A stretch of DNA of 54,646 bases, from positions 1 through 54,646 of IMG/VR virus record IMGVR_UViG_3300030222_000026; one strand, written 5' to 3'. The DNA is from a virus (lineage: Duplodnaviria; Caudoviricetes). Under the pieces are notes generated by a model, which saw only the letters and a list, made by a program, of their open reading frames with translations, did no database searches and had not been told where the DNA came from. Positions 1,212 through 53,691 of the stretch are shown piece after piece. The position numbers and the translations under genes were made by a program. Each line of letters begins with the position of its first letter. The first letter of the stretch is position 1.

Positions 1212-1670
1212 TCAGGAGAAGAAAACCACATCGGTATGGTGGGGCTTGCCATGCCACTGGACGCAAGGACCAGGGGGGGTGGCGAAGGTCAGGTCGCCCG
1301 TCTGAAGGCAAAGGAACTGGCGTGACAGTTCGGTGGGGATGGGGCGCTCCAGACAGATCAGCGGAAGGGCCAGGTCGGCGGGGTACACGACGAAATGGCC
1401 AAGGGAGCGGTAGGTGTGGGCGATGCGATGGAAGAGGAGAGGAAAGCGCGTGGCGATCTCGTGGTTCGAGGCGCGAACGAGAGAGCGGTAATCGTCCTCC
1501 GGTGTGTGGGCGTGGGAGAGACCGATGCAGGGAGTGCCGTCGAGGGTGCGGTGGAGATCGGTGGCAGAGGTGAGGCGCTCGAGCAGCGCGGGCAGGTCAT
1601 CCTTCGGCCAGCAGGGATAGGAGATGGGCGCAACGTTCGAAGGAGAGGAAGAGGTGGAGACATCCGTCAT
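1212..1670 (-). CDS. Hypothetical protein
   Basis: Start MTDVSTS overlaps the upstream stop (ATGA). Confidence 0.55.
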   Translation of the reverse strand: MTDVSTSSSPSNVAPISYPCWPKDDLPALLERLTSATDLHRTLDGTPCIGLSHAHTPEDDYRSLVRASNHEIATRFPLLFHRIAHTYRSLGHFVVYPADLALPLICLERPIPTELSRQFLCLQTGDLTFATPPGPCVQWHGKPHHTDVVFFS

Positions 1671-3007
1671 GTGCGGAACCCTCGCTTGATCTTGTTGGCA
1701 GGAAGGCCAGCGGCGAAGCCGCGCTGGCGAAGAACGGTCGAGGCCCAATCGGGAACGCGCGTCCAGCCGCCCCACCCACGGTCAAGGTCGAAACTCGAGG
1801 GGACTGCGGGTCGCATGTCCGCGTGGATGTGGCCGTCGTAAAAGCCAAGGCCGGTGAAGCCAGCGCCGACAAGAGCATCGACGAGTTGAGTACGCTCGGA
1901 CTCGGACATGTCACCAATCGGGATATCCAGAGCCGTGGAGGCACCGCCGTTGGTCGAGGTATGGTGAGAGCGGCGCGCGACCGTCACACGGTTGGGGTCG
2001 CCTCGCGAACGGATGGCATCCTGCTGCGCCTGGGTGCGAGAGCCAGAGGTGACAGGGATGTCGCGGCCAAGGATGGACGCCGCCATTCTGGCGGCGTTCG
2101 TCGCGGAAGGGTCGAGTCCCGAAAGGTCGACGCCGTCATGGGATGGGATAAGGCCGAAATCGCCAGCGGGGAGGCGGCGGGTGACGGTGGTATTGGGGTT
2201 GCCGCTGTTCTCCGGGCCAATGGAGGCGTCGGTGTTGGCATAGGCATTGGCGTAGGCGCTGCCGAAACCGGATTGAGGTGTCGGAATGGCGTCAGGGCCA
2301 AGGGTGGCCTTCTCGCCGGGAGAGACCTTCTGGGCGCCGTCAGTCGGGTCGGCCTTGCGTGCCGTCACGCGCGAATAGGCGGCGGCATAGGCGTCGCCAA
2401 AGGCTGAGCCATTGGAGGAAGGAGCGCCACGCCGCGCCGGAACCTGAACCATCCGGCGCGGGTCCGTAGGGTTTGCCGGTGGAGCCTTGGAGCCGGGAGA
2501 GAGTTTGGAGGCGAGGAGATCGGAAGAGACGTCGTCGCCAAGGGCGATGGTGTAGGACGGGACTTCGACGACAGGGTTCAGGCGGTAGCGGTTGTAGAAG
2601 TGATGGTCGCCCTCGACCATCGTCGGAGCGGTGGCCGCGAAGTTGGTGCCGCGCCGATTGGTGATGGCCGGGTTCTGGAAGAACGTCGCACCAGAGGTCG
2701 GGTCGGAGATGTTGCCAGAGGCGAAGGACGCAAGAGTTTCGTCGATAAGGCGGCGCGTTTCGCCAGAAGCCGAAGGCAGGTCTTGCCACGACTTGCGAGC
2801 GTACATGGGCTCGAACTGCCCCTTCTGCTCGATGACGCCCGTGACAGAGTTGGGAAAGCCGCCCGTGCGCGCGGCGGCGCGGTTCAGAACGGTGAAGAGA
2901 ACAGCCTGCTTGCCAAGGGAGGACTGGTTGCCAGCCTCCGCCTCGACAATGCGGGCCAGGGCATCACGGTCAGAACGAGAGATGGGAATGGCCATGCGGT
3001 CAGTCAT
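1667..3007 (-). CDS. Two-domain murein hydrolase: SleB/Hydrolase_2-like domain plus M15-type Zn peptidase
   Basis: LARIVEAEAG...VLNR...VIEQKGQFEP...DPTSGATFF...HHFY; C-terminal VTSGSR...SHH...ALDI...GLGFYDGHIHADMR; start at 3007 or 2995. Confidence 0.8.
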   Translation of the reverse strand: MTDRMAIPISRSDRDALARIVEAEAGNQSSLGKQAVLFTVLNRAAARTGGFPNSVTGVIEQKGQFEPMYARKSWQDLPSASGETRRLIDETLASFASGNISDPTSGATFFQNPAITNRRGTNFAATAPTMVEGDHHFYNRYRLNPVVEVPSYTIALGDDVSSDLLASKLSPGSKAPPANPTDPRRMVQVPARRGAPSSNGSAFGDAYAAAYSRVTARKADPTDGAQKVSPGEKATLGPDAIPTPQSGFGSAYANAYANTDASIGPENSGNPNTTVTRRLPAGDFGLIPSHDGVDLSGLDPSATNAARMAASILGRDIPVTSGSRTQAQQDAIRSRGDPNRVTVARRSHHTSTNGGASTALDIPIGDMSESERTQLVDALVGAGFTGLGFYDGHIHADMRPAVPSSFDLDRGWGGWTRVPDWASTVLRQRGFAAGLPANKIKRGFRT

Positions 3008-3350
3008 TGGAGAGGCCCTCACGTTCGCGCCAGCGGTGGGAGAAGACATCGCCCAGAGTGCGGACGGACGACATGGCCTGGTGGCCGAAGTGCATGAAGC
3101 CGCCGCTCCAGCCGTAGCCGACCTCGGGGCGACCATCGTGAAGTTCGATGGTGCCGAAGCCGAGGCCAATGACTTGGCCAGACATCACCCGCTCGCGGAG
3201 GAACTCAAGGGTCTTGAGGGCCTCTTCCTGATAGTAGCGAACGTCTTCGTCGCTCATGTCGACGGCATCGGAAAACGGAACGATCCGGTCGATGCCGTCA
3301 GGCGACGTGACAATGCGCGGGCCAGGAAACTTGGGGGTCTGCGCCGACAT
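3000..3350 (-). CDS. Hypothetical protein
   Basis: GGAGG RBS before MSAQTPK; in operon. Confidence 0.65.
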   Translation of the reverse strand: MSAQTPKFPGPRIVTSPDGIDRIVPFSDAVDMSDEDVRYYQEEALKTLEFLRERVMSGQVIGLGFGTIELHDGRPEVGYGWSGGFMHFGHQAMSSVRTLGDVFSHRWREREGLSND

Positions 3351-10389: not shown

Positions 10390-13300
10390 CTATTCCGTAT
10401 CGCGTGTGTAGTCGATGAAGTCGAGCGTCGATGGGTCGATTTTCGCGGACTGACGTTGTCGGGTTCGCTCAGCCTCTCCCGCCGCCAAATCAACCATCAT
10501 CTCCCGGACGGGCTTCACACCGCCAAGGACGGGCACGCGCTCGGCAATGGAGCGAACGCCACGCCGCTCGGTGGAGTTGCTATCCGGGGTGCGGTCGAGA
10601 AGAGCATCAAGCCCCCCAGAGGCCACGTTGAACGCCCCAACGCCAGTGGAGACGGACGGCCCGAAGAGGGTCGAAGCCACCCTCACCTGGCCATAAGCCC
10701 CATTGTCCGTCTGAGACACGACGTCGTGGATCATCTCGAGGAGAAGGCCGAACCCTGCTGCGTGCGTGAAGCCTTCGACCACCCAACCGGCGTACATGTC
10801 GATGGTCTCATCGTCCATCGGCTCCGACATGAGCGGGTTCCAGTCAGAGAAACGACGCTCTCGAAGAGCAAAATCGGGATCATCCCGCTCGCCACCACGC
10901 CCCTGAACAATGTCCTTCACAGCCAGGGAGCCCATGCCTGCGGCAGGAGCGGCTGTGAGCAGCCACATGGCGCGGCGCAGATCGCCCGTCCCCTTCAGGT
11001 TGCTCGGAGGCTTCTTCCCAAGCATGTCGTAGAGGGCCAGCTTGACGTCATCGACGATGATCTCCTTGGACATCCTCATCATCATAAGGGGGAAGGACTT
11101 GAGTTGGAAGATCATCGCCCCGAGCGGCGTCTGACCCCAGATCGGAATGTCTGCCGGGTTCGGAGCGAAGATGGACTCGTCGGCAAACTTGATCACGGCA
11201 ACACGGGCGGCGTCGCTGTCGGCAATACCGATGGCCTCGTTCGTGTAACGCCCCTCGAGAACATCCGGACTGTCGATCATGGGGGCGCTCCGGTGGGTGA
11301 AGCCCTCCAACCCATAGTTCTTGAGTGTGCGGTAGGCGCGCTTGACCTTCGCGGGCTGCTGGTGGAACGGGACACCATCGACCCAGGCGTCGTGAGCCTT
11401 TTTCTGAGCCGCCTTGAACGTCTCAATGGCGACCGCACCAGCGAAACGACGGTTCACATCCGTCCAGGGAGTCAGGCCAGTTGCGTTGAAAAAGGCGTTG
11501 GTGAAGCGACCATCTGATGCTCCCCACATGTAGGCCAGCCTGTCGTGCAGGATCGACTCCCCCGCGACACCAATGTTCTCCAGCATCTCCCTGTAGACGG
11601 GATCGCTGGCGAAACGCCTGAGCGCCTTCGCATAAGCACTCATGTTGCCAGAGCGGATGAGCGGGAGGACGGGGTCGCCAAGTGAGGTCAGCGTCGTGAA
11701 GCCAAGGAGGGTCACGAGGTTGAAGTTCCGCATGCCACGCGAGAACTTCAGCATGCCCTCATGGTCGGACAGCGTCTTGCGGTTAGACACCTTCATCAAG
11801 CGCTCGATGAAATGGGCCGCGTCGTTGGTGATGAGGTGCGGGTCTCCATCGAAGTCCGAGAGCGCGGCGAGGATCGCCTCGACGCGACGCTCGTAGAACA
11901 ACGACGGCTCCCCATTGGCCTGATCGACTGGCTGGTACTTCATCAGGATATTGCGGGCGACCGGCTCTCCGAGCCCTGGGTCGGCAAGAGCCTCTTCCAC
12001 CTCCCGAATGACCTGAGCCGCCTCCTGCTCCTTCCCCTCGAAGGGCATGTTGAAGGTGTCGAGGAAGACGACCTCCTCCATGTTGCCGCTTTCGTCGCGC
12101 GCACGTTTGGTGGATTGAAACACCTTCTTGGTGGTCAGGAGTTGAACCGCACCTGCTGTGCCATCCTGCATGACCTTCAGGTAGTCATAAGCCCCATGGG
12201 AGCCGATGCCGAAAGTCTCGATCTGGTGGATGCGACGACCAGCCTGATCGTAATACTTCACCATGACGGCCTCGAGGTCGTCTTCGAGGAACTCTCGCAG
12301 GGCCATGCTGGTGTCGGAGTTGTCCAGGCGGATCGCGCGAGAGCCATCAAGGTTCTCGGCTGCCGAGTTTCTGGATGCCCCACGGCCCGGCACCATCAGC
12401 CCTTCACTCTCGTCGTCGAGGATTTTCAGGACAGTGCGGCGAGCAATCTCCTCAGTCTCCTCGCGGCCAAGGGGGTTGCCCTCGCGGAGCGAGGCATCAA
12501 GGAAGTGATCCCGGAGAAGAGACGTGAAGCGCTCGCGGTCCTCGGTCGACTTGTGGATCTTGTGAACGCTCCACAATTGCGGGAAGTAGTCCTTGATGAA
12601 CCCGATGCGGGGGTCGATGCGACGCATGGCATCGTGCGTCCTGGCCAGGTGATCCGCAATGGCCTGAGCCGCACGTTGCTCTTCAGAGGACATGGCGTTC
12701 CAGTTGCGCTTGTTGCGCTGAGGATCGACAGAGCCACGCTGCGACAGCCAGCGGAAAATTCGCTTATGGCTTTCAGGCTGGTCAGCCCCGAATTTCCTCG
12801 TGCCAGCCGCATCCGCTGTTGCGCGACGATACCAGCGATGGAGGGCGTGCTTCACGCTACCGCTCGAGTCAGGGAGCGTGCGCAGGATCTTCAGTGGCCC
12901 CTTGTCCTGAAGCCCACCATGCAGAAGACGGTTGGTGATCTGCGTCGAGCGCTGGAAGTAGGTGTCGAACTTCCCGGCGAGCCAGTGGGCATTGAAAACA
13001 CGGAGCGTGTTGGGGTTCGAGCGGAAGACGCCCTCGGCGAAGTTGCCAATGGCGCGGCCACCGGGGAGCATGTCGAGCATCCCGCGAACAAGGCCACGGT
13101 TGCCGTTGTTTTTCGTAAGGCGAATGACCGCCCTCTGGTCGGCATCCGAAGGCGCGCGCTTGCGGACGAAATTCCCGATAGCATGCTGGACATCGCGCAG
13201 AGGCTCCGCCTTCGAGATCGAGGAAAGGATGATCGTCGCCTTCGCGTCGTCAATGCCAGACGCATCGCCGTCGACCGTCCTGTTCAGGACAGGGCCAGAC

Positions 13301-16300
13301 GGGCGGATCGGGGTGCCGGTCGGGTGAGCGAACTCCTCAAAGAACTCCGGTTCAGCCGTGAGTTTGACATCGGATGGGTCGAAGAGAACCGTGCTGTCGA
13401 TAGCGTTGAACCCACGGTATCCAGACGCCCGGAACAGGTTCGACGCAGCGGTGCGGCTCGTGGCTTTGGAGAGACGCTCATAAAGCAGGTAGTTCGTCGG
13501 GAGCGTGTCGATCTCCTCAGCCTGATCGCGCACCATGGCGGCGAATGACTCGAGGGCCTTCGTCATCTTCTGAGGTGCTGTGCCCTTGTACCGTCCGGAC
13601 GCAACGGTTTCGAGGAGGAGCGAGACGATCTTCGGATACCCATCTTCACTCAGCGAAACCGGAGCGCCGAGGTCGAGGAGGCTCGTCGTCCGGGCAATGA
13701 CCGGAACAACGTAGTCGTCGTGGAGGACATCCTTTAAGTCCTCCATCAGGGCGGCTTCACGGTCGAGAGCGTCCGAGATAGACTTGGAGGCGGACGGCCC
13801 GGTGCCACTCGATGCCTTGTTCAGAAACTCCCTTGTCTCCTGAAGCAAGCGGATCTTTTCAGTGACTTCGCCTGTCACAACAGCGTCATCACGCAGGAGC
13901 GGAATGGAGTTCGAAGGGACTGCCTGAAGGTAGACGCCAGGGCCGAACTCCTTGTTCATCGAGACGATGGATGGAGAGTCTGTCTTCGCGGCCTTGGATT
14001 TTGCCGAAATCCGGTAGAACATGACAGGGGCGGTCTTCCCCGAAATGTCCTCTCCAGCGAACAGGCTCATCTCCCGCTTCCGGCTCGGGGGAGCGGACAT
14101 GACGTCATCAATCGCGAAGCGCGCTTGCCCCGGCGTCAGAATGTTGTTGGCCGGAAGATAGGCTCGAGGAACAAGATCGCCGCTGAAGGGGTTGCCATAC
14201 CAAGTCAGACGGGCGTTCGTTTTCGCGACGGGCTCCGACATCAGACCGTTGGCCATGTAGCCGACGCGGTCGATAATGCGGCTGATGAAATCATCAGGGG
14301 AAGAGGCATTGCCAGACGAGGGAGCCATCGGAGGAAGCGGGGCGGCCTCGTTCATACTGTTGTGAAGGCGGTGATGGACGGCCTTGCGAACCCACATGTC
14401 GGCAACGGAAATCGCTTCCTCCGGGTTCTCTCGTGCGATGTTCCGAGCCTCCTCCGGAAAGAACGAAGTGACCTGCTCGACCCAATTGTCCCCATCCAGT
14501 CGCGCGGCGATTTCCGAAAGCCGGTTGATCGCCTCCGCGCTGTCCCCATTCCTGCCGCTCAGACCGGAACCAATCTGCCGGAAGGTTTCGACGAAGCGCT
14601 TGTGCGCCTCGTTGCCAGTCGCGACGAAAAGGCCGTCGACGAATGGCTCGCTCTCGAAGCCAAGGAGGTTCTTCACACGTTCAGCATCGAGCGGATCGCC
14701 CTTGTCGGCAAGGTTCAGGAAGCGAAGGGCAGCCTTGCGGGCTGTATATTCCGTTCGCTTCTCCCGATGAGCGATGGAGATCAAGACCTGGCGCGTGCTC
14801 TGGTCGATATTGCCAGGGACGCCGCGCTCGGAGGATGCAAAAGTGTCGAAGGATTTCTCCCGCTCAATGGCGTCGAGAACGGTCGGCTCTGCAAAGGAGA
14901 TGATCGGATTGCCATTATTGCGAGAAGCCAATTCAAGGGCATAGGCATCGACATCCTCATCGCCAAGACGGAACGCCTCATCCACCGTGGCCACCAGATC
15001 GTCGATATCCTGAATGGAAGCGCCCTTCCGGAGTGGAGCACCATCCTTCATGTAAGGATTGATGATGACCTTCGTTCGCTTCGCTGTTTCCAGCGCCTCG
15101 GCATAACGATCCGCCTGATCCGTTTCATTGGCCTCGATGACACGTTCGAGTTCGGTTTCAGACATTGCCGTAGCCGAAGTCATAGACTGTGCATCGGAAG
15201 CTGGACGGATCGGTGCGGTCTTCCGTCCAGTGTTCTGGACCGCCACCTCATCGACCTTCTTGCGACGACGGGCGCGGACCTCGGCAGCACGCTCACGAAG
15301 GCTCTTCGAGGCCCTCTCCATGTGCTCGACTGTCGTGCGCCCCTCCTGAGCAAGCCTCACCTCGCGCTCGGAGCGACTCTCGGCACGCTTGAACTCCTCA
15401 ACGGTTTCCGAAGAGATCTCGATTGTAGCTTCGCTCCCGTCGATCTTGGCAATCGCGAAGCGTCCAATTTCGGGGCTGTCCTCGAAGCCAATGACACGAG
15501 CCACGAAGTCGTCGGTCTTGTGCAGGAAAGGGTCGCCGATCCGGACGTCATGGAACTTCTTCCGGTCGTTCCCGATGACGGCGACCTTCGCATCCTTCGC
15601 ATCCTTCGTGCGGTCAAGGTACTTCTTCTCGAGAGAGGCAGGGGTGTATTTCGCGCGAGCGCCATTGCGCTCGAAGGACGTATCGAGGGACTTGTGCGCA
15701 AGGTTTAGCCAGTCGGACAGAGAAGACCCCTCGGCGCGCTCACCAGACCCGACCTTCTTCTTCCCATACAGGAAAAGCTCCATCAGGCGGTCGGCGACCT
15801 CCTCGGGCCTCGCGCCGACCTTCAGGCTGTCAGAGTCAAGATCGCGCACGCTGGCGGCAGCATGGTCCAGGGCGTTCGAGTTCTTCTTGGTGAAGGGGTC
15901 TTTCGTAACCTCCTTGGCATCCGAAATACCAACGACCTCACGGCCCGCAAGAATACGGGCGATGTCGTGCGCCTTGTTCCGGCCATGAGCGGCGAGGCGG
16001 TTCTTGCCGCCAGCATGGTAGGCATAGAGAACACCAGCCTCGCCATACTGCGATTGCAGGGGAGTTCCGGCGCGCTCTGCCGCGCGCCTCATGATCGACG
16101 CCATCTGCTTCTTGGAGAACGTCGAGCCATAAAGATAGGAGAGGGTCTCCTTCGCTGCCTGAATGGCCTTGTCCGGGACATCCCGATTGGCAACGGCATC
16201 GTCCCAAAGCTCATCCAAATATTGGAGCCGTCGAGAGTGGTTCTTCAAAACTCGGACGTAGGACGCGCGCTCTTCCGGAGCGAGTTCGAGAAGCTCCTCC

Positions 16301-19300
16301 TCCGTGTAGTCACGGACCCAATTCTCGATAGGGCCAGTGCGGCGCTCCCCGTCCTTCTTCTCATCGGAGTTCAGACCAGGCTTGACCTTCTTGCCCGTGC
16401 GGCGATCTGTCGACGGTGACGGCGGAGTCGGAGTGTCGTCCACGTCATCCGTTGTATCTGCCGCGTCGGGAAGCGCGTCGCCAGCGCCAGAGGCAGAGTC
16501 GAGCTTGCGCGCCTCGATCTCCGCCATCTTGCGCTTTCGCTCGGGGAGCAACCTCGCGAAGTGCGGGACCAGATCAGGGTCGATGGAAGTCTTGGCGAAG
16601 AAACGGTCGAAGACCGCCTTGATGTAGTAGGTCGCCTTCTGCCAGATCGAGCGCTGAGCATCTCCCCGGACTTCACGAGTGGCCCACATTGCGAACTGGT
16701 TCGCGAGGAACTCGGCCGGGCTGTCGAGAGCGTTCAGAACGCCAACCGCACGCCCATTCACCGCCTCGATGGGAGAGCGCTTAAAGACATCCAGCGGAGA
16801 GAAGACGCCATTGGCGTCATAGTATTTTCCGAGCGACTCCATGACGGATGCCTTGTCGGCATCCGACATCACATGAACCCACGCCCAATGGAAGATCTCA
16901 TGGAACAGCGTCGCGGTCGGCGGCGTATCGCCCTTGGCAATACGCGACGTGTTGAAGGAGACCTGCCCAATGCGGTCGCCACGAAGCCCGCCAGTGGCCG
17001 TTTCCGCCGCCGCCTTCATGGACGCATCCTGAGCGAACCGGGGGAGTGCACGGGAGGCCAGTCGGTCGACGAACTCCTTCGCGGTCTTGACCTGCTCAGA
17101 GCCGAATGACGAAAAGATCAACTCGATCTCGGCAAGGGCAATGGTCCTGTCAGCCTCGGGCAGAGCAACCCCATAAGGAGCCAGTCGAGAACGCATCTCG
17201 GTGAGGCGCTGGACGAGGGCCAGTAGCTCACGCTGCGCGTCAAGCGAGGTCGGCCACTTCGACATGAACTTGTGAGCACCCTTCAGACGACGATGCGCCC
17301 CCAACTCGATGTTGGTCAGAAGGCGCTGGATCGTACGCCCATTCACACCCCCGCCACTTGCGCGAAGGCCGTCGATGTAGGCGACCGCATCACCGCTCTT
17401 GACCTGGAGGCCAGCGGCCACACGAAGCGTACTCCAGTCTTCCTCCGTGAGCTTCTCCGGCGAGAGTATCGCGGACTCGAAGTCCGCGAAATTCATCGCC
17501 GTGCGCTCCTCGTACCTGGTGATGGCAGGCGTCTGAGGTTTGCCTGACGACGCAGCCTTCTTCCCAACTGCGGTGTTCGGGGTGTCAGGATCAACGTAGG
17601 TGGCCGTCCAGTCCTCGAGATCCTGCTTCGTGCCAACAAGATCCTGAGCCGTACGCTTCGCGTCGATGTCGGACTTGCTGGCAAGAATTGTCAGGCTCGG
17701 GTCCTTTTTCAAGGTGAGGAGAAGGCGACGACCCTGATCGTCGACAAGATCAGGCATGTCGATGGGAGTATCAACGGATGCCATCTTGCGCTCGGCGCGC
17801 TTCACACGCGCGAGCATCTTCTCCACGCTGATCTTGCCAGCCGCGTAATCGTCGAGGGCCTTCTTCTGGATGTTGCGAACGCGGTTCTGCTCGGTCGGAG
17901 CGGCCCGGTTCACCTCGTCGAGAATGTGCTTAGGGGCCTTGGTGGGGGACTCCAGACCCATGGCCGAATAGACGTTCCGCCAGTTCTTGAAGACCTTCCC
18001 GTTGGGCGAAACCCACAACATGGAGCCGCTCGGGGAGACCTTAGGGCTGTCGACCGTCTTCGTCTGGCGCGTGGCGATGAACGCCGCAGGCAGATCCTTG
18101 CTCTGGGCGATCACATTCGCTTCGTCGCGCGTCGCCACATTCTGGTAGTTGGCCTCGCTCTCGGTCGGGGCCATGCCCCGATCCGTCGAATACTCTTCGC
18201 CCGTCTCTTTCGATGTGTAGGAACGGCCAGGGCGCATGAAGGACTGGATGTTCTTCTGCGTGTCCTCGGTCGCATAGATGGACTTGCGCTCGATGGAACT
18301 CTGCGCGGAGCGCGTGCGGCCAGTGTCCGAGACGGATGCCGCGCGCTCGACCGCCTTGGTCGCCCGGTCGCGAGCAATGATCTCCGGCATGTCCGGATTG
18401 TCCCGCATCGTCTCCATCGTGAGACGCTCAATCTTACGGGCCTTCTCGCGAGCCAGACGCTTCTCGGTCTGCTGGCGCTCGTACTCCGCCTTGCTCAACT
18501 TGATTGGCGCAGAGCCCTCCTCGACCCCCGCTTCCTTCGCAGAGCGCACGTAGCGCTCGATCTTGGCGTACTGCTTGGCGTCATCGGAAACGCCGAGTTC
18601 TTGCGCGACCGCGCGTGCGATCATCGACGGGTCGTCGCGGAAACTCGCACGGATTTCCTCCGGCATCTCGTCAAGGCGCTCAACCAGTCGCTCGGTCGTG
18701 GCGCGGACGTTCGTGGCGAAGTCCTCCTCCGCAACACGCTCAGGGGTTTCCTGAGCCAGATACTTGCGGATATCGCCCTGAGTGACCTTCCCATCCTTGC
18801 CAGTGGGCGTCACATCATCGAGGTCGACAAGGTTCGCATCGGCAAAACGACGAACCTGTTCGCGGGTGACACTGGATGTGGTCGCCTTGGGGGGCACCTC
18901 GGGAGGGATAACGCCAGTGGGGGCAGCCCCGGCCTCAGCTTCGGCACGCTCAAGCTCAGCGAGTCGGGCGACAAAATCGTCGAGCGTTCCAGCGTCATCA
19001 AGACCTTCATCGACAGGCGTGGAGTCAGGAACTTGTTCGGTGACTTGTTCGGTGGGCCGCTCATCTGGAGCGGTTACACCTTCCTGGGAACCCGTGCCTC
19101 GCGCCGCCTCAGTGGGCGCTTCAGTCGGCGCTTCAGCACCCTCCCCCTTGGCGGTCGTACGCGCGGCTTGTCCACGACGCGGCTCACCCCCCTTCTTCGC
19201 TTCCTTCTGCTGCTCGGCCTGCTGCGCCTTCTGCTGCTCGGCCCGCGCCTTTCGCTCCTCAAGTCTCTGGCGGATGAATGCGCCATAGTCCTCCGGGACA

Positions 19301-20589
19301 GTCTCCGTCAGGAGCGCGTCCAGCATGGCCATGTCTTCCTCGAAGACGCCAGCCCGCTTGCGGGCGCGCTCGAGAGCATCCAGCTTATTGCTGCCCTCAT
19401 CCTTGATGATCTGGGCAAGCTCGTTCTCGGTGCGCTGCTGGAACTCGAGGGCCATGCGAACGTTGGCGAGACGGCGCTTCACCTCGTCGAGATAGTCCGG
19501 GTCGGCGTCAGCCTCCTCGCCAAACTCGACCTGACGCCGGTATTCGTTGAGAAGCTCACGCAGCTTGGCCTGATGCTGTTTCAGCTTGAGACTGTCTGCC
19601 TCGCGGGCCTCGGCGGCAGCGCGTTCCGCCTCCATCTCCGCAGTCTGCTCGGGCGTCAGATCCTCCTGAGGGGCATCGGAACGCGAGGCCAGGACGGCAG
19701 GAGACGGGGGGCGCTGGTTCTGGACGACCTGCCTGACCTCGCCCAGCGTCATGTCCATCAGTTCAGTGGGGCGATAGCCAAGGTCGATGGCCTGGTCATA
19801 TGCCTTACTCGCCTGGGAGCGGCCAATCGCACCGCCCGCAGCGCCGAGGATCGAGCCGACACCGGCACCCATCAGAGCACCAAGGGTGACATCCTCAAGG
19901 ACAGCCATACCCGAGACGCCGTCCTGAAGCCCAAGCTCGGATCGCATCGACTGTTGACCAACAGAGGCAAGACCCTCCGCCGCGCCGCTGATCAGGCCCT
20001 CGACCTTCGCGCCGTGGAGCGCACCCTCCTTCAGGGCGCGACCAACGGTGAAAGACTCCCCAAGAGAGCGCGCGGCCAGGAGGCCCTTGCCCACTTTCGC
20101 CGATGCGCTAACAGCAGGGATGACGTTGAGCGGGTCGGTAATGACGCCCTCGGCAATTGAGGGTACGGCAGACAGGCCGCGCCCCCCCTCGGAGAACATG
20201 CCGGGGTATTTTTCGGAAACCTGCTGAAGGCGCGCGAGCGCCGCCTTGCGCTCTTCGGAGGAGTTGGCTGCGTCCGCGAGAGAGCCAGTCGCACCAACGA
20301 AGTTGCCAACGGAGTTGAAGGTGCGCCTGTTGAAATTGTCGAGAACGAGGTCGCGAAGCTCCTCGCGCGTCTTTCCCTCGGCATCAACCCCGAATGCGGT
20401 TCGAACGTCCTCGAAGAAACGAGGGTCGTTCATCAACTCATCAGGGATACGGGCGCGTTCTGTGTAATCGCCCGGATCAGATTGCACACTTTGGCTGGGC
20501 TGCTGCTCCCGGAGTCGGCGACGGTATTCGCTGACGGATACACCTGCGGCTTCGGCAGCGCGGGAAAGCGCAAGAAAATCTTCGGACAA
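10390..20589 (-). CDS. Giant internal virion / polyvalent protein (3399 aa)
   Basis: Last ejection-module gene; HEIFH zincin motif, ART-like FGPGVY segment, E3-binding-like motif, C-terminal region resembling podophage internal virion proteins. Confidence 0.8.
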   Translation of the reverse strand: MSEDFLALSRAAEAAGVSVSEYRRRLREQQPSQSVQSDPGDYTERARIPDELMNDPRFFEDVRTAFGVDAEGKTREELRDLVLDNFNRRTFNSVGNFVGATGSLADAANSSEERKAALARLQQVSEKYPGMFSEGGRGLSAVPSIAEGVITDPLNVIPAVSASAKVGKGLLAARSLGESFTVGRALKEGALHGAKVEGLISGAAEGLASVGQQSMRSELGLQDGVSGMAVLEDVTLGALMGAGVGSILGAAGGAIGRSQASKAYDQAIDLGYRPTELMDMTLGEVRQVVQNQRPPSPAVLASRSDAPQEDLTPEQTAEMEAERAAAEAREADSLKLKQHQAKLRELLNEYRRQVEFGEEADADPDYLDEVKRRLANVRMALEFQQRTENELAQIIKDEGSNKLDALERARKRAGVFEEDMAMLDALLTETVPEDYGAFIRQRLEERKARAEQQKAQQAEQQKEAKKGGEPRRGQAARTTAKGEGAEAPTEAPTEAARGTGSQEGVTAPDERPTEQVTEQVPDSTPVDEGLDDAGTLDDFVARLAELERAEAEAGAAPTGVIPPEVPPKATTSSVTREQVRRFADANLVDLDDVTPTGKDGKVTQGDIRKYLAQETPERVAEEDFATNVRATTERLVERLDEMPEEIRASFRDDPSMIARAVAQELGVSDDAKQYAKIERYVRSAKEAGVEEGSAPIKLSKAEYERQQTEKRLAREKARKIERLTMETMRDNPDMPEIIARDRATKAVERAASVSDTGRTRSAQSSIERKSIYATEDTQKNIQSFMRPGRSYTSKETGEEYSTDRGMAPTESEANYQNVATRDEANVIAQSKDLPAAFIATRQTKTVDSPKVSPSGSMLWVSPNGKVFKNWRNVYSAMGLESPTKAPKHILDEVNRAAPTEQNRVRNIQKKALDDYAAGKISVEKMLARVKRAERKMASVDTPIDMPDLVDDQGRRLLLTLKKDPSLTILASKSDIDAKRTAQDLVGTKQDLEDWTATYVDPDTPNTAVGKKAASSGKPQTPAITRYEERTAMNFADFESAILSPEKLTEEDWSTLRVAAGLQVKSGDAVAYIDGLRASGGGVNGRTIQRLLTNIELGAHRRLKGAHKFMSKWPTSLDAQRELLALVQRLTEMRSRLAPYGVALPEADRTIALAEIELIFSSFGSEQVKTAKEFVDRLASRALPRFAQDASMKAAAETATGGLRGDRIGQVSFNTSRIAKGDTPPTATLFHEIFHWAWVHVMSDADKASVMESLGKYYDANGVFSPLDVFKRSPIEAVNGRAVGVLNALDSPAEFLANQFAMWATREVRGDAQRSIWQKATYYIKAVFDRFFAKTSIDPDLVPHFARLLPERKRKMAEIEARKLDSASGAGDALPDAADTTDDVDDTPTPPSPSTDRRTGKKVKPGLNSDEKKDGERRTGPIENWVRDYTEEELLELAPEERASYVRVLKNHSRRLQYLDELWDDAVANRDVPDKAIQAAKETLSYLYGSTFSKKQMASIMRRAAERAGTPLQSQYGEAGVLYAYHAGGKNRLAAHGRNKAHDIARILAGREVVGISDAKEVTKDPFTKKNSNALDHAAASVRDLDSDSLKVGARPEEVADRLMELFLYGKKKVGSGERAEGSSLSDWLNLAHKSLDTSFERNGARAKYTPASLEKKYLDRTKDAKDAKVAVIGNDRKKFHDVRIGDPFLHKTDDFVARVIGFEDSPEIGRFAIAKIDGSEATIEISSETVEEFKRAESRSEREVRLAQEGRTTVEHMERASKSLRERAAEVRARRRKKVDEVAVQNTGRKTAPIRPASDAQSMTSATAMSETELERVIEANETDQADRYAEALETAKRTKVIINPYMKDGAPLRKGASIQDIDDLVATVDEAFRLGDEDVDAYALELASRNNGNPIISFAEPTVLDAIEREKSFDTFASSERGVPGNIDQSTRQVLISIAHREKRTEYTARKAALRFLNLADKGDPLDAERVKNLLGFESEPFVDGLFVATGNEAHKRFVETFRQIGSGLSGRNGDSAEAINRLSEIAARLDGDNWVEQVTSFFPEEARNIARENPEEAISVADMWVRKAVHHRLHNSMNEAAPLPPMAPSSGNASSPDDFISRIIDRVGYMANGLMSEPVAKTNARLTWYGNPFSGDLVPRAYLPANNILTPGQARFAIDDVMSAPPSRKREMSLFAGEDISGKTAPVMFYRISAKSKAAKTDSPSIVSMNKEFGPGVYLQAVPSNSIPLLRDDAVVTGEVTEKIRLLQETREFLNKASSGTGPSASKSISDALDREAALMEDLKDVLHDDYVVPVIARTTSLLDLGAPVSLSEDGYPKIVSLLLETVASGRYKGTAPQKMTKALESFAAMVRDQAEEIDTLPTNYLLYERLSKATSRTAASNLFRASGYRGFNAIDSTVLFDPSDVKLTAEPEFFEEFAHPTGTPIRPSGPVLNRTVDGDASGIDDAKATIILSSISKAEPLRDVQHAIGNFVRKRAPSDADQRAVIRLTKNNGNRGLVRGMLDMLPGGRAIGNFAEGVFRSNPNTLRVFNAHWLAGKFDTYFQRSTQITNRLLHGGLQDKGPLKILRTLPDSSGSVKHALHRWYRRATADAAGTRKFGADQPESHKRIFRWLSQRGSVDPQRNKRNWNAMSSEEQRAAQAIADHLARTHDAMRRIDPRIGFIKDYFPQLWSVHKIHKSTEDRERFTSLLRDHFLDASLREGNPLGREETEEIARRTVLKILDDESEGLMVPGRGASRNSAAENLDGSRAIRLDNSDTSMALREFLEDDLEAVMVKYYDQAGRRIHQIETFGIGSHGAYDYLKVMQDGTAGAVQLLTTKKVFQSTKRARDESGNMEEVVFLDTFNMPFEGKEQEAAQVIREVEEALADPGLGEPVARNILMKYQPVDQANGEPSLFYERRVEAILAALSDFDGDPHLITNDAAHFIERLMKVSNRKTLSDHEGMLKFSRGMRNFNLVTLLGFTTLTSLGDPVLPLIRSGNMSAYAKALRRFASDPVYREMLENIGVAGESILHDRLAYMWGASDGRFTNAFFNATGLTPWTDVNRRFAGAVAIETFKAAQKKAHDAWVDGVPFHQQPAKVKRAYRTLKNYGLEGFTHRSAPMIDSPDVLEGRYTNEAIGIADSDAARVAVIKFADESIFAPNPADIPIWGQTPLGAMIFQLKSFPLMMMRMSKEIIVDDVKLALYDMLGKKPPSNLKGTGDLRRAMWLLTAAPAAGMGSLAVKDIVQGRGGERDDPDFALRERRFSDWNPLMSEPMDDETIDMYAGWVVEGFTHAAGFGLLLEMIHDVVSQTDNGAYGQVRVASTLFGPSVSTGVGAFNVASGGLDALLDRTPDSNSTERRGVRSIAERVPVLGGVKPVREMMVDLAAGEAERTRQRQSAKIDPSTLDFIDYTRDTE

Positions 20590-44780: not shown

Positions 44781-44803
44781 GGGTGTCGCATAGTGTGACA
44801 TCC
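44781..44803. promoter_or_regulatory. Operator-like site GGGTGTCGC-ATAGT-GTGACATCC
   Basis: Imperfect palindrome repeated at 46617 and 53131. Confidence 0.7.
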
Positions 44804-44837
44804 GGAAGACATCCACCACCACACGAAAGGACACCAC

Positions 44838-45101
44838 ATGGCCCTCACCACGGCGGCGGCCAGCCGCAAGGATCGCTCGATGAGCGACCACGAACTCAGG
44901 CGGTTTCAGCACCGCCATTACGCTGCCATCGCCGCCATCCTGCGGCGTATGCAGGAAGACGGCCTCGTCCCTGTGCCCATCTGCAACAGGGTCACGCAGC
45001 ACTTCGCCAACGAGTTCGAGCGGGCGAACGAGAAGTTCGACCGATCCCGTTTCATCCTCGGCACCGTGAGTGGCGATCACCTGCCCGAAGACTTCGCCTG
45101 A
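44838..45101 (+). CDS. Hypothetical protein
   Basis: GAAAGGA RBS; RHYAAIA...FANEFERANEKFDRSRF. Confidence 0.7.
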   Translation: MALTTAAASRKDRSMSDHELRRFQHRHYAAIAAILRRMQEDGLVPVPICNRVTQHFANEFERANEKFDRSRFILGTVSGDHLPEDFA

Positions 45102-45118
45102 CACAAGGAACCACCACC

Positions 45119-45472
45119 ATGCTGCTCATCACCAGCGACCAGAACCTGCGTCTCGACCGCAACGGGGAGGCCCTTGCAGCCCGCCGCAAGGACGCGCTCG
45201 ATCTCACCCCTCCTCTCAAGCTGTTCACGCCCTGGGGTGGCGCGACGTGGCTGTTGGTCAGCCGCGACCCGGACCACCACAACATTCTCTTCGGCCTCTG
45301 CGATCTCGGCCTTGGTTACCCCGAACTCGGCGACGTCGACCTCGACGAACTCAAGGCCCTGCAAGGGCCATGGGGGCTCAGGGTGGAGCGAGACATCCAC
45401 TGGACGGCGCGCAAGCGTCCGCTCCGCCACTTCTACGACGAGGCCATGGCCAACGGGAGGATCGTGGCGTGA
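45119..45472 (+). CDS. DUF2958-like protein
   Basis: KLFTPWGGATWLL...FGLCDLGLGYPELG..LDEL...VERD signature. Confidence 0.8.
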   Translation: MLLITSDQNLRLDRNGEALAARRKDALDLTPPLKLFTPWGGATWLLVSRDPDHHNILFGLCDLGLGYPELGDVDLDELKALQGPWGLRVERDIHWTARKRPLRHFYDEAMANGRIVA

Positions 45473-47546: not shown

Positions 47547-49376
47547 ATGGAATACCGAGCCAGAGCGGAGGCGCTCGTGGCGGCGTACTGTCGTGGCCAC
47601 ACGTCAGAGCACGCCCGAACCTTCAACGACCATCGCCGCAGCCGAGTGCGCAAGCTGGTCATGGACGCAACCGAGGATTGGGACCGTGATGGCCTCCTTC
47701 ACGAGGCTGATAACCACGGCCACGGCCACAGGTTCTCTTCGTACAAGGGAACCTTCAGCACACTGCGTGACACCATGGATAACTCCATGATGGTCGCTGT
47801 CGTGCTTGGCCTTGCCGATGAGGAGATCATCCGGAAGCTGCTTCGGGGCCATAAGCCCCTCTCGGCACCTTATGCGGCGATCAGTTCGTTGGTCACTCAC
47901 ATGAACCAACTCAACCTGATCATATGGCGTGAGGCACTCCTGATTGGAACGCGGGCACATCCGAACGATACGTCGGAAGACCTGAAGAAGAGGTCGGAGA
48001 GAGTCGCTCGAGTAATTGCGAACGCGAAGTGGGACTCCGGCATCGACACCGAAGACTTCCAGGAGTTCGTCATCAACCATGCGATGACGATGGCGACCGC
48101 CCTCGCGGAGGGCGGTCTCGACCCCAAGTCCGTGCACGACATGGACACCACCACCACCACCGAGAAGGACACCACCATGACCGACACCAACATCGACTCC
48201 ATCACCTCCGGTCTCGAAGCCATCGGCGACGGCGAGCGCGCCGTGGTCGATGCCTTGCTTCAGAAGTTCAACGTGCCGCAGATCGACGACATCGAGTCGA
48301 AGTTTCAGACGCTCAGGGAAAAGGCCAAGGAGGCGGCGTCGGGGCCGACCGGCGTGAAGATCGAGGTCAAGCTGGAGGATGCCTATGGCACCAACAAGGT
48401 CGGCGATCTGCCTGATGGCAAGGTCGACTATCGCAAGGCCAGCGACGTCTTCGGCATCACCGGGAAGGGTGTGTCGATGTTCGATTTCGATGTGCCCGTG
48501 TGGACGTGGGATGCGGAGCACCCGATGGTGCCGGAGGTTGACGATCACTATCGGTTCGAGCCGTCCTCGCTCCTGCGTGCGCTCATGGCCGTCGTCATGA
48601 ACAAGATGGCGTGGATTTACGGTCATACCGGGACCGGCAAGTCCACGCTCGTCGAGCAGATCTGCGCCCGCCTCAAGTTCCCGATGATCCGTGTCAACTT
48701 CGACTCCGAAATCACCCGCATGGACCTGACCGGGAGGGATACCCTCACCATCGACGCCTCGACGGGAACGCAGATCACCGAGTTCGTGGAGGGTCTGCTG
48801 CCGCAGGCGCTCCAGATGCCCTGCGTGATGCTGGCCGACGAACTCGACGCCATCCGGCCCGACGTCGCCTACGTGTATCAGCGGGTTCTCGAAGGCAACG
48901 GCATGGTGCTCAACGAGAACGGTGGGCAGGTGATCAAGCCGCATCCGTGGTTCCGCCTCATGGCAACCGGCAACAGCCGTGGCAACGGCGACACCAGCGG
49001 CATGTACAACGCCGTCAGGCCGCAGTCCATGGCCATGCTGGACCGCTTCGGCGTGTGGATCGAGGTCGACTACATGGCCATCCACGAACTGAAGAGGCTG
49101 CTCAAGTCCAAGTTTTCGGCGCTCAACAACGACGAGATCGACCTGATCTCCAAGTATGCCAACGAACACTGGACGGCCTTCAAGGGCGGCGATCTTCGCC
49201 AGCCGCTCTCGCCTCGTGGTGTTCAGGCGGTTGCCGAACAGTACACCTTCTTCAAGGGGCTGATGGCGCAGGACAAGGCCATCGAGCAGGCGATCCGCTG
49301 CGCCGTGGCCGACAGGGCCGAGGAGTCCGACGCGCAGGTCATCGCCGGGCTGATGCAGCGGGTCAAGAAGTCCTGA
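47547..49376 (+). CDS. MoxR/CbbQ/CobS-like AAA+ ATPase with N-terminal extension (probable internal start at 48177)
   Basis: GHTGTGKS, LADELD, ATGN, MLDRF, SPR. Confidence 0.85.
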   Translation: MEYRARAEALVAAYCRGHTSEHARTFNDHRRSRVRKLVMDATEDWDRDGLLHEADNHGHGHRFSSYKGTFSTLRDTMDNSMMVAVVLGLADEEIIRKLLRGHKPLSAPYAAISSLVTHMNQLNLIIWREALLIGTRAHPNDTSEDLKKRSERVARVIANAKWDSGIDTEDFQEFVINHAMTMATALAEGGLDPKSVHDMDTTTTTEKDTTMTDTNIDSITSGLEAIGDGERAVVDALLQKFNVPQIDDIESKFQTLREKAKEAASGPTGVKIEVKLEDAYGTNKVGDLPDGKVDYRKASDVFGITGKGVSMFDFDVPVWTWDAEHPMVPEVDDHYRFEPSSLLRALMAVVMNKMAWIYGHTGTGKSTLVEQICARLKFPMIRVNFDSEITRMDLTGRDTLTIDASTGTQITEFVEGLLPQALQMPCVMLADELDAIRPDVAYVYQRVLEGNGMVLNENGGQVIKPHPWFRLMATGNSRGNGDTSGMYNAVRPQSMAMLDRFGVWIEVDYMAIHELKRLLKSKFSALNNDEIDLISKYANEHWTAFKGGDLRQPLSPRGVQAVAEQYTFFKGLMAQDKAIEQAIRCAVADRAEESDAQVIAGLMQRVKKS

Positions 49377-49479
49377 AAAGTTCACATGGCCAGGAGGGAC
49401 GAGGCGCTTGCGCGCCTCGTTTCCACCATTCGTGCGGGAGCGGTGAGGCTTCCGCTTCTCTTGAGTGAAAGGACACACC

Positions 49480-53193: not shown

Positions 53194-53691
53194 ATGACGA
53201 AGAAGGAGACGGATGGACAGGGCGCGAACATGGAAAGTCCAGCGGTTGCGCAACTTCTGTTGGCGCTCGGTCGTGTCGAGGGGATGATGATGACCCTCAA
53301 GGATCGCGTCGATGCCCTCGAGAACGAGAAGGTCGTGAAGCCCTATCGTCGTAACGAGGAAGATCGTCAGGGCGATCCGGAGATCGTGCTGGCGGGGCTC
53401 ACGCCCCGGCAGCATGCAACACTGCAAATGGTGATGAACGGGAGAAGCACGCAGGAAATGGCGAAGCGTCTCGGCGTCACCGAGTCAACGGTCAAGGTGC
53501 ACGTACGCCTCATCGGCAAGAAGTGCGGCGTCAAGCTGAGGCGGCAGATCGCAATGTTTCTGCGGCCAGCGTTCGAAAAAATGCCCGCACGAAAATACCT
53601 CGCCATGTCCGGTGGACTCCCGAAGGATTGGGACGAAACCTGGGGCCAAGGCGGGGAGGCGTTCGACTACATCGTGAGGCAGGAGCCGTGA
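53194..53691 (+). CDS. LuxR-type HTH regulator
   Basis: LTPRQ...GRSTQEMAKRLGVTESTVKVHVRLIGKKCGV. Confidence 0.85.
   Translation: MTKKETDGQGANMESPAVAQLLLALGRVEGMMMTLKDRVDALENEKVVKPYRRNEEDRQGDPEIVLAGLTPRQHATLQMVMNGRSTQEMAKRLGVTESTVKVHVRLIGKKCGVKLRRQIAMFLRPAFEKMPARKYLAMSGGLPKDWDETWGQGGEAFDYIVRQEP

Follow-up and report, generated by a model that had tools for sequence, protein, structure and literature searches.

A giant protein of a marine temperate podovirus almost certainly carries a peripheral-subunit-binding domain, which might dock it on host 2-oxoacid dehydrogenase components

What might a docking domain of the 2-oxoacid dehydrogenase complexes be doing inside a giant phage protein? To our knowledge, peripheral-subunit-binding domains (PSBDs) have been described essentially only within E2 and E3-binding-protein chains. 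An earlier note on this DNA had nevertheless pointed to a PSBD-like motif in a giant virion protein, and had suggested that the protein might dock on or titrate host E3 and E1 subunits, or else that the fold has been reused. We followed up this proposal in the window, i.e. the whole stretch of 54,646 nucleotides that was analysed. The motif proved to be real, and the word "giant" was apt, as the peptide VTREQVRRFADANLVDLDDVTPTGKDGKVTQGDIRKYL is encoded on the minus strand at window 18757-18870 and makes up aa 574-611 of a 3399-aa ORF; where the motif had been placed, the plus strand holds only a stop-containing frame. The features needed for the argument are as follows.

10390-20589, minus strand: giant ORF carrying the PSBD (3399 aa, TTG start), equivalent of CRP-810 gp36, gp35 and gp34 together
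19705-20472, minus strand: conserved N-terminal block, aa 40-295 (tblastn, family BLAST, 30% identity to CRP-810 gp36)
18865-18939, minus strand: Pro/Ala/Thr-rich linker directly upstream of the PSBD, aa 551-575 (translation)
18748-18864, minus strand: PSBD fold, aa 576-614 (Pfam, AF2, Foldseek, PDB sequence matches)
aa 579-608 of the giant ORF, minus strand: Pfam E3_binding match
16480-17322, minus strand: HExxH...E block, putative zincin-like metallopeptidase, HEIFH at aa 1230-1234
13390-14058, minus strand: degenerate ART-PolyVal-like block, aa ~2178-2400 (alignment block)
10393-13152, minus strand: most conserved C-terminal region, aa 2480-3399 (BLAST map)

We are nearly certain that aa 576-614 of the giant ORF form a bona fide peripheral-subunit-binding domain. 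The earlier note had proposed a search with Pfam E3_binding (PF02817) and would have given up the motif had no significant profile hit been obtained; the hit is there, since the excised 53 aa score 33.5 bits (E 5e-8) and the full-length giant protein scores 26.7 bits (E 6.5e-6), against a curated gathering cutoff of 23.7 bits. No other Pfam family exceeds its cutoff in the whole-protein search, and a six-frame E3_binding search of the record finds a single site, with 32.7 bits. When the domain was compared with PDB sequences at E<=1, each of the 20 matches was to a PSBD, from either E2 or protein X, with 1zwv at the top (E 3e-4). The relationship also holds in the opposite direction, since a profile made of phage copies only recovers authentic E2 PSBDs of three bacterial genomes, seven of them at E 4.6e-13 to 4e-4, while the eighth host E2 PSBD reaches just E 0.065. 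The alignment of phage and host PSBDs is gapless apart from one host row, which has a gap of a single residue.

One could still argue that a short helical motif mimics the PSBD pattern without any homology. The domain is just ~35 aa long and the Foldseek E-values of its model are weak (8.6e-3 at best), although this weakness follows from the small size of the domain. Against chance resemblance stand the curated Pfam cutoff being exceeded, the reciprocity of the profile match, and the fact that diverged homologues pass Pfam on their own (27.8 bits for P0003 and 34.7 bits for L003), while P0004 and P0007 are E3_binding-positive in precomputed Pfam data; moreover, the best reversed decoy scored 2.7 bits, as compared to up to 18.2 bits for real targets. 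Judged by these sequence comparisons, chance resemblance is so improbable that it may be taken as effectively refuted.

The predicted fold agrees with this assignment. In the AF2 model, helix 1 spans aa 576-585 and helix 2 spans aa 604-614 (model residues 17-26 and 45-55), with 3-10 turns and a core pLDDT of 86-91, and the linker is modelled at pLDDT 68-72 without secondary structure. Foldseek ranks 1-20 for this model are all PSBDs, most at an rmsd of 0.6-1.6 A and with TM values, normalised to the target, of up to 0.85; since the AF2 input alignment contained host PSBDs, the fold does not count as evidence separate from the homology. In BFVD, the same model met with no credible PSBD-like fold among viral structures (best E 1.0).

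The phage copy thus resembles the PSBDs of E2 and E3-binding-protein chains in having ~35 aa, two helices, a 3-10 turn and a loop, and in passing the family profile. The window copy retains the helix-I Arg, the conserved Ala, the loop T-G with its Gly and both Asp residues. The Pro/Ala/Thr linker described before the motif is likewise present in the translation, the sequence just upstream of the PSBD being EAEAGAAPTGVIPPEVPPKATTSS, and it is itself preceded by a longer Ala/Pro/Thr/Glu-rich low-complexity stretch. Ala/Pro-type linkers, as in E2, flank the window PSBD on both sides, and we counted this in favor of docking to E3 or E1. On the other hand, the loop Arg is replaced by Lys, "PTG" stands for "GTG" (P occurs in 21 of 289 background PSBDs), the profile score lies under those of most host PSBDs, and the domain sits inside a 3399-aa protein, where it is neither preceded by a lipoyl domain nor followed by a 2-oxoacid_dh core. 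Neither Biotin_lipoyl nor 2-oxoacid_dh could be found in the giant ORF even at E<=10, whereas a true E2 used as a control (P0028) shows both.

Within the giant ORF, whose database version (P0002) has 3347 aa, the PSBD follows the conserved N-terminal block and precedes the HExxH block, and it is borne on Pro/Ala/Thr-rich linkers. CRP-810 gp36, which bears the depositor's label "internal virion protein D", is 30% identical to the giant ORF over aa 31-307 of the latter; no Pfam or PHROG family supports a T7 gp16-type identity of this N-terminal block. In the HExxH block, both His residues, the Glu and a downstream Glu are invariant in 31 sequences. Its AF2 model (pLDDT 78.6) has zincins at the top of a VIA-align comparison, yet at Z 6.0-5.2, which is below the noise guide of the tool, and Foldseek gave no meaningful match with it; a zincin-like metallopeptidase module is therefore treated here as a lead. 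Further downstream, the ART-like block reads FYRIS where the family has FYHGTP. ART-PolyVal is detected in 4 of 12 homologues, and neither it nor another polyvalent-protein Pfam family is detected in the giant ORF itself (P0001). For the C-terminal region, the nearest Atlas clusters are viral hypothetical proteins (0.98-0.99). The Atlas LPD/ART-PolyVal rows for the N-terminal part (0.77-0.84) and LPD38/39 rows for the C-terminal part (0.94-0.95, with the query under the recognition mark of the tool) serve as leads. A PHROGs search of the whole giant protein returned one weak match of unknown function (E 0.006) and nothing else.

The source phage is marine and temperate. Its record encodes an SU10-type capsid and portal, TerL, Prim-Pol, an AAA_24 ATPase and an integrase, and its sole match in the phage collection is Roseobacter phage CRP-810 (OR671924), with which the module order agrees; by gene content, then, it is a CRP-810-type temperate podovirus. 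No host gene lies within the window, and neither Pyr_redox_dim (E3) nor Transketolase_C (E1-beta) has a match in the record, so that a canonical partner of the PSBD would be that of the host. Related (pro)phage sequences sit in assemblies labelled Novosphingobium, Kistimonas and Poseidonocella; they came from alignment-based scans, whereas single-sequence scans of viral contigs and genome contigs yielded no relatives. The accessible text of PMC11288001 reports SAR11 as a host for CRP-810-type relatives, and the Poseidonocella prophage named there is a homologue as well.

Does the giant protein reach the host cytoplasm? Its gene adjoins those of capsid, portal and terminase, and we counted this structural-module context, together with ART-PolyVal in homologues, in favor of delivery. 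Polyvalent proteins have been predicted to be injected with phage DNA, according to the accessible text of Iyer et al. (2017, PMC5512222). By analogy, from gene position and protein family, we infer that the giant protein is probably a virion component that leaves the particle along with the DNA. The term "mass spectrometry" is absent from the accessible text of PMC11288001, which we counted against assuming that the giant protein is packaged.

The distribution of the module among giant proteins bears on its age and use. When iterated, the family profile settles on 26 giants that have the module at aa ~470-690, and a profile made of diverged modules only matches that of authentic PSBDs with an hhalign probability of 95.4% (E 2e-8). 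Eight modules at the homologous position had gone unrecognised; tested singly against Pfam, seven of them have no E3_binding match and the one of P0018 has a partial match (19.2 bits), hence their homology rests on the profile-profile test and not on single-sequence Pfam searches. In a FastTree phylogeny of 70 rows, all PSBD or PSBD-derived modules are confined to one clade (SH-like 95); the module is present at the same position in 22 of its 26 rows, as compared to 0 of 44 rows outside. Such a pattern fits a single PSBD capture followed by long retention, and retention in so many rows of the clade argues for some function of the module. Among the 58 family members which are complete from the N-terminal block to HExxH, 21 carry it; in the other 37 it is undetected, and this we counted against docking to E3 or E1.

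We then come to the helix-I Arg and the Arg of the loop "GR", which we take to be the E3/E1 binding-surface residues. Of 24 distinct modules, 20 have R or K at the helix-I position, where the window copy has R580, and 17 have R or K at the loop position, where the window copy has K601; in the 289 background PSBDs, R occupies the former in 208 and the latter in 159. However, in the clear giant copies the loop Arg of "G-R-[IV]" is always replaced (0 of 6 have R), by K in the window and by K, F, M, F or V in the five others, and this replacement was counted against E3/E1 docking. Against Pfam, the phage PSBDs reach 27-35 bits, as compared to 46-69 bits for seven host E2 PSBDs and 33.7 bits for an eighth. 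The diverged modules have all lost (16 of 16) an Asp which is invariant in 289 of 289 authentic PSBDs and they carry a loop insertion of 1-2 residues; of the two canonical basic positions, col 8 is R or K in 16 of 16 and col 29 in 13 of 16. Much of the carrier clade would thus seem, by sequence, to be drifting from the canonical PSBD, and a partner other than E3 or E1 would explain this, too. Net charge, considered as an argument against binding, was dropped: its median in the background is 0, the giants fall between -2 and +2, and the 289-PSBD background is biased, having been chosen with the phage profile.

E3 is dihydrolipoyl dehydrogenase, and in some complexes it competes with E1 for a single PSBD site. 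The reading that we favor, while judging it possible rather than probable, is that the PSBD tethers the ejected giant protein to host E3 or E1. In this scenario, the giant protein would enter the cytoplasm along with the phage DNA, and its linker-borne PSBD would act as it does in E2, docking on the two-fold axis of the host E3 dimer, or on E1. By docking, the giant protein, or a fragment cut free by the HExxH module within it, would be tethered to components of the 2-oxoacid dehydrogenases; the use of this would lie in localising the other modules of the protein or directing them to substrates, and not in stoichiometric titration. When the window PSBD was co-folded with two chains of the Poseidonocella E3 P0026, a dihydrolipoyl dehydrogenase with a 29-sequence alignment, the scores were 0.08 and 0.01 against a mark of 0.32; this E3 was a stand-in for that of the cognate host, and the scores bear neither way on docking.

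The earlier note had also allowed for titration; in such a case, a free PSBD would displace E3 or E1 from host E2 cores and halt the flux through pyruvate and 2-oxoglutarate dehydrogenases (PDH/OGDH). Titration shares with tethering the evidence on domain identity. Nevertheless, there is one PSBD per giant protein, a virion probably brings in few copies of it while a cell has many E3 and E1 subunits, nothing in the data points to a later high-level expression of the free domain, and the window copy is weaker than canonical PSBDs. Since a handful of copies from the virion could not tie up a host enzyme that is abundant, we consider titration very unlikely, and tethering or targeting the more plausible of the two.

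It is less easy to decide whether the fold has simply been reused, with a captured PSBD kept as an adaptor for another partner, such as a phage core, portal or capsid protein in assembly, or some host protein that has nothing to do with 2-oxoacid dehydrogenases. The loss of the loop Arg in the six clear copies, the lost Asp and loop insertion of the diverged modules, and Pfam scores lower than those of host PSBDs would all agree with it, and a partner conserved among phages would explain the fixed position of the module across phages with different hosts. At the same time, the window copy keeps near-canonical PSBD signatures along with the helix-I Arg, and even diverged forms keep both canonical basic positions. 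Also E3 and E1 are themselves conserved across hosts, and hence conservation of the module does not separate docking from fold reuse. We regard such reuse as somewhat unlikely. A structural spacer, i.e. a tiny domain which folds autonomously and very fast, lies within long flexible linkers and serves as a mechanical or refolding element without any specific partner, seems improbable. The giant protein would, under this reading, have to pass the tail channel unfolded. The module indeed lies inside a long, low-complexity, linker-rich variable region, its sequence varies highly across the clade, and several solved PSBD entries among the matches have titles on ultrafast or downhill folding. Yet a mere spacer would be expected neither to keep its surface basic positions nor to hold a fixed position throughout most of the clade, and 44 of the 70 tree rows manage without a detectable module.

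Very large podovirus virion proteins which enter the host with the DNA are known, namely the N4-like virion RNA polymerase and T7 gp14-16, and the likeness of the giant protein to them is one of analogy; Pfam and PHROGs find in it neither an RNA polymerase nor a gp16-type family. N4 gp50 also bears a zincin-like module, according to the accessible text of PMC5512222. The polyvalent proteins of that text resemble the giant protein, as giant multi-module proteins among late virion genes whose zincin peptidase modules its HExxH...E block recalls. The combination of PSBD, HExxH...E and ART-like blocks in one ORF is a further likeness, as is ART-PolyVal in some homologues; unlike them, the giant ORF has an ART-like block which is degenerate and matches no Pfam polyvalent family. 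With respect to CRP-810, the giant ORF aligns to gp36 (30%) and gp35/gp34 (35%), three genes there corresponding to the single ORF in the window, and the phage-only profile finds no PSBD in CRP-810 ORFs of at least 300 aa.

No description of a PSBD in a phage protein turned up in the literature searched. The words E3-binding, dehydrogenase, peripheral and lipoamide are absent from the main text of PMC5512222, and the accessible text of PMC11288001 does not discuss PSBDs. A PSBD in a phage lineage yields a concrete and cheap hypothesis, that of a 40-residue domain against E3 and E1, and it addresses the question of how incoming virion proteins locate their targets in central metabolism. Should binding be absent, the PSBD fold would have been recruited for another partner, and this would bear on how far E3_binding annotation may be trusted outside E2 chains. 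In its fullest form, which we hold to be somewhat unlikely, the proposal is that, in one clade of marine temperate podoviruses, a giant polyvalent virion protein brings in a captured E2 docking domain; this domain would plug into host E3 or E1 and, during DNA entry, aim a peptidase/ART effector at the pyruvate/2-oxoglutarate dehydrogenase node. If tethering is true, it would be a case of subunit mimicry of a core metabolic machine, of which we found no phage description in the literature searched. If binding is true, the PSBD would be a new targeting module in the repertoire of polyvalent proteins, and would offer phages a new way of interfering, in abundant marine bacteria, with the PDH/OGDH node.

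The E3-binding-like motif proposed in the earlier note is present, encoded by the minus strand; read on the plus strand, these positions give a frame with a stop. Translation of 18757-18870 (minus strand) yields VTREQVRRFADANLVDLDDVTPTGKDGKVTQGDIRKYL, which corresponds to aa 574-611 within one 3399-aa ORF (10390..20589, minus strand), named P0001. The suggested Pro/Ala/Thr linker was borne out as well: EAEAGAAPTGVIPPEVPPKATTSS stands immediately upstream of the motif and is itself preceded by a longer Ala/Pro/Thr/Glu-rich stretch. The longest version of the ORF begins at TTG (start region 20434-20589, minus strand), and its true start is uncertain because the database version of this protein, P0002 (3347 aa), is 52 residues shorter.

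The HMM search against Pfam E3_binding (PF02817, curated cutoff 23.7 bits), the peripheral-subunit-binding domain (PSBD) of E2 subunits, agreed with the assignment: the match at aa 579-608 scored 26.7 bits (E 6.5e-6) in the whole giant protein and 33.5 bits (E 5e-8) in the excised 53 residues, with no other Pfam family above cutoff in either. A six-frame search found this single site in the whole record (32.7 bits). Sequence matches in the PDB at E<=1 numbered 20, every one a PSBD from an E2 chain or protein X, with human BCKD E2 (1zwv, E 3e-4) on top. A profile made of phage copies only recovered seven authentic E2 PSBDs of three bacterial genomes at E 4.6e-13 to 4e-4, and an eighth at E 0.065 only; the alignment of phage and host PSBDs is gapless except for a single one-residue gap in one host row. 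The AF2 model, built from a 12-row alignment of phage and host PSBDs, shows one helix at model residues 17-26 and another at 45-55, separated by 3-10 turns, with a core pLDDT of 86-91. Foldseek against the PDB returned PSBDs at ranks 1-20 and in nine of the next ten rows (the remaining one is an E3-E2 integrative model), superposing with rmsd mostly 0.6-1.6 A and TM up to 0.85 (target-normalised); with so tiny a domain the E-values stay weak (best 8.6e-3), and the fold does not count as evidence separate from the sequence, since the input alignment contained host PSBDs. Judged by profile and modelled fold, the module belongs to the PSBD family, and a chance resemblance is hardly credible. Lipoyl and 2-oxoacid_dh domains were sought in P0001 with Pfam and none was found, the PSBD being present alone; thus the giant protein is not an E2 or E3-binding protein.

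The binding positions presumably correspond to G. stearothermophilus R135, R139 and R156, in agreement with the register of the 2pdd alignment. The window carries the following residues:
R580: helix-I Arg
K601: Arg position of the loop 'G-R-[IV]'
D606: Asp before helix 2

Among 289 distinct background PSBDs, a set biased because the phage profile was used to select it, the helix-I position is R in 208, the loop position R in 159 and K in 32, and the third is D in all 289. The six clear giant copies have the helix-I R in four cases, the loop R in none (K, K, F, M, F, V) and the Asp in all six. Across 24 distinct family modules, the helix-I and loop positions hold R/K in 20 and 17, respectively, and D is found in 7/8 clear and 0/16 diverged modules, the latter being altered relatives at the same position. 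Phage copies score 27-35 bits with Pfam, compared with 46-69 bits for seven of eight host PSBDs and 33.7 for one. From its residues, and from Pfam scores lower than those of most host PSBDs, the window copy reads as a near-canonical but weakened PSBD.

Clear PSBDs occupy the same relative position in the giant-family relatives P0003 (27.8 bits), P0004 and P0007 (both precomputed Pfam matches), P0137, and L003 (34.7 bits), a locus of a metagenome-assembled genome labelled Novosphingobium whose ORF is P0036. In viral contigs, where the best 80 of 181 relatives from an alignment-based scan were examined, PSBDs were seen in L062 (29.5 bits), L096 (29.6 bits) and L071 (19.8 bits); L076 matched only weakly (15.1 bits). 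An iterated family profile converged on 26 giants and linked clear PSBDs to the diverged form (consensus roughly 'RGRALAeGlDWR..tPs.ks..GRITkG'). As a drift control, a profile of diverged modules alone was compared with the authentic PSBD profile and matched it (hhalign probability 95.4%, E 2e-8, 43 columns, 2-residue loop insertion); it scored 76 of 167 targets (PSBD-bearing representatives and other ORFs from host loci) above the best reversed decoy (2.7 bits), the highest real target reaching 18.2 bits.

The module is present in 21 of the 58 members complete from N-block to HExxH, always at aa 473-685. On a FastTree tree of the C-terminal 850 aa, whose 70 rows are members of >=2900 aa with an HExxH-type motif (shorter pieces, including P0003, excluded), all carriers fall in one clade (SH-like support 95) of 26 rows: 7 have the clear form, 15 the diverged form and 4 no detected module. 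In the remaining 44 rows no module was detected. The diverged forms nest within the clade, whose early branches have clear PSBDs, the window copy among them. On a tree rooted at the midpoint only, this would most simply be read as one capture followed by long retention with progressive divergence. An exhaustive profile search with a limit of E<=1e-3 gave 4246 proteins; among the 150 matches listed, the giant family is represented only by P0003, P0004, P0137 and P0036, and the other proteins have <=1103 aa. A fold search of BFVD found no PSBD-like viral structure, and, supplementary files aside, the literature searched describes no phage protein with a PSBD.

Other PSBD and E3 proteins were met alongside. 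In four metagenomic representatives (P0027, P0029, P0030, P0039) the PSBD is repeated four times in tandem (Pfam E 1e-30 to 1e-44), with neither a lipoyl nor an E2 catalytic domain; P0028, with three PSBDs, is a true E2. Some of the four may be fragments, their contigs being short (1.5-7.4 kb). PSBD-only repeat proteins may represent a separate class. At L021 (G002:C135, Poseidonocella genome), a second E3 gene adjoins a 429-aa E2 gene, and its open frame continues through an Ala/Pro-rich stretch for about 200 aa ahead of the FAD-binding motif; the E3 may be N-terminally extended, or the frame may overlap the gene upstream.

The record is an IMG/VR provirus, 94% complete, with no host genes in the window. 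Besides a Prim-Pol/AAA_25 protein and AAA_24, it encodes the following features:
1667-3169, minus strand: 500-aa protein with a Hydrolase_2 (SleB-type cell-wall hydrolase) domain, likely a lysis or entry enzyme
13390-14058, minus strand: block aligned with the ART-PolyVal region of giant-protein homologues
16480-17322, minus strand: HExxH...E block (middle conserved part, from the family alignment), HEIFH at 16888-16902
44783-45472, plus strand: DUF2958 protein (E 2e-29)
47547-49376, plus strand: AAA_5 ATPase, early region
49465-51552, plus strand: CobT/VWA protein, forming with the neighbouring AAA_5 ATPase a CobS/CobT-like (MoxR-VWA type) pair
53194-53691, plus strand: LuxR/GerE-type regulator, adjoining the integrase
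53708-54646, plus strand: tyrosine integrase at the 3' end, reaching the last position of the record

Genes for a major capsid protein and a portal, both SU10-type, and for a large terminase lie upstream of the giant ORF and share its strand. Within the phage collection, the sole relative was Roseobacter phage CRP-810, in which three genes correspond to our single ORF: gp36 ('internal virion protein D'; 30% identity to aa 31-307), gp35 and gp34 (35% identity). CRP-810 integrates at tRNA-Thr, whereas no tRNA gene was found in the window, and the Hydrolase_2 gene here stands at a distance from the giant gene, in contrast to the lysis genes of that phage. PMC11288001 describes a new CRP-810 family of 251 UViGs, most with an integrase, and prophages in SAR11, Poseidonocella and Sphingomonadaceae; the paper has no virion proteomics.

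Family comparison delimits three conserved parts of the giant protein (aa ~40-295, ~1110-1355 and ~1900/2500-3375), with the PSBD in the variable region between the first and second. In the HExxH...E block, H, E, H and the downstream E are invariant in 31 family sequences; a wide structural search with its AF2 model (pLDDT 78.6) placed zincin metallopeptidases on top at Z 6.0, 5.3 and 5.2, under the noise guide, which gives a lead towards a zincin-type metallopeptidase. It may be a self-processing peptidase, as is typical for polyvalent proteins. ART-PolyVal was detected in 4 of 12 homologues; the window block has FYRIS where the family motif is FYHGTP, gives no Pfam detection of ART-PolyVal, and is probably a degenerate ADP-ribosyltransferase module. 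Atlas neighbours of the giant protein are viral, the named leads being LPD and ART-PolyVal clusters. These features fit the polyvalent proteins described in the main text of Iyer et al. 2017 (PMC5512222), where those encoded among virion genes are predicted to be injected with DNA, and where E3-binding, dehydrogenase, peripheral and lipoamide are not mentioned. The carrier looks like a virion protein of the polyvalent type, from a CRP-810-type phage.

The record lacks any Pyr_redox_dim or Transketolase_C domain, and a canonical partner would therefore be the host's. What the domain is, its linkers, where it sits in the giant protein and its retention across the clade are established; beyond this, we propose that the giant protein would be packaged into the virion and ejected, that flexible linkers would carry the PSBD into the cytoplasm, and that it would dock there on host E3 or E1, as within E2 complexes. 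Such docking is plausible, if somewhat short of an even chance. That the same fold serves a different partner is rather unlikely, and a role as a fast-folding structural spacer is improbable.

A stoichiometric inhibitor is more doubtful still, as an abundant enzyme cannot be saturated by the few copies borne in a virion. For the same reason, tethering or targeting is favoured over titration as the predicted role of the PSBD: catalytic modules (the putative peptidase, or ART in relatives) aimed at the host complex would work even at low copy number.
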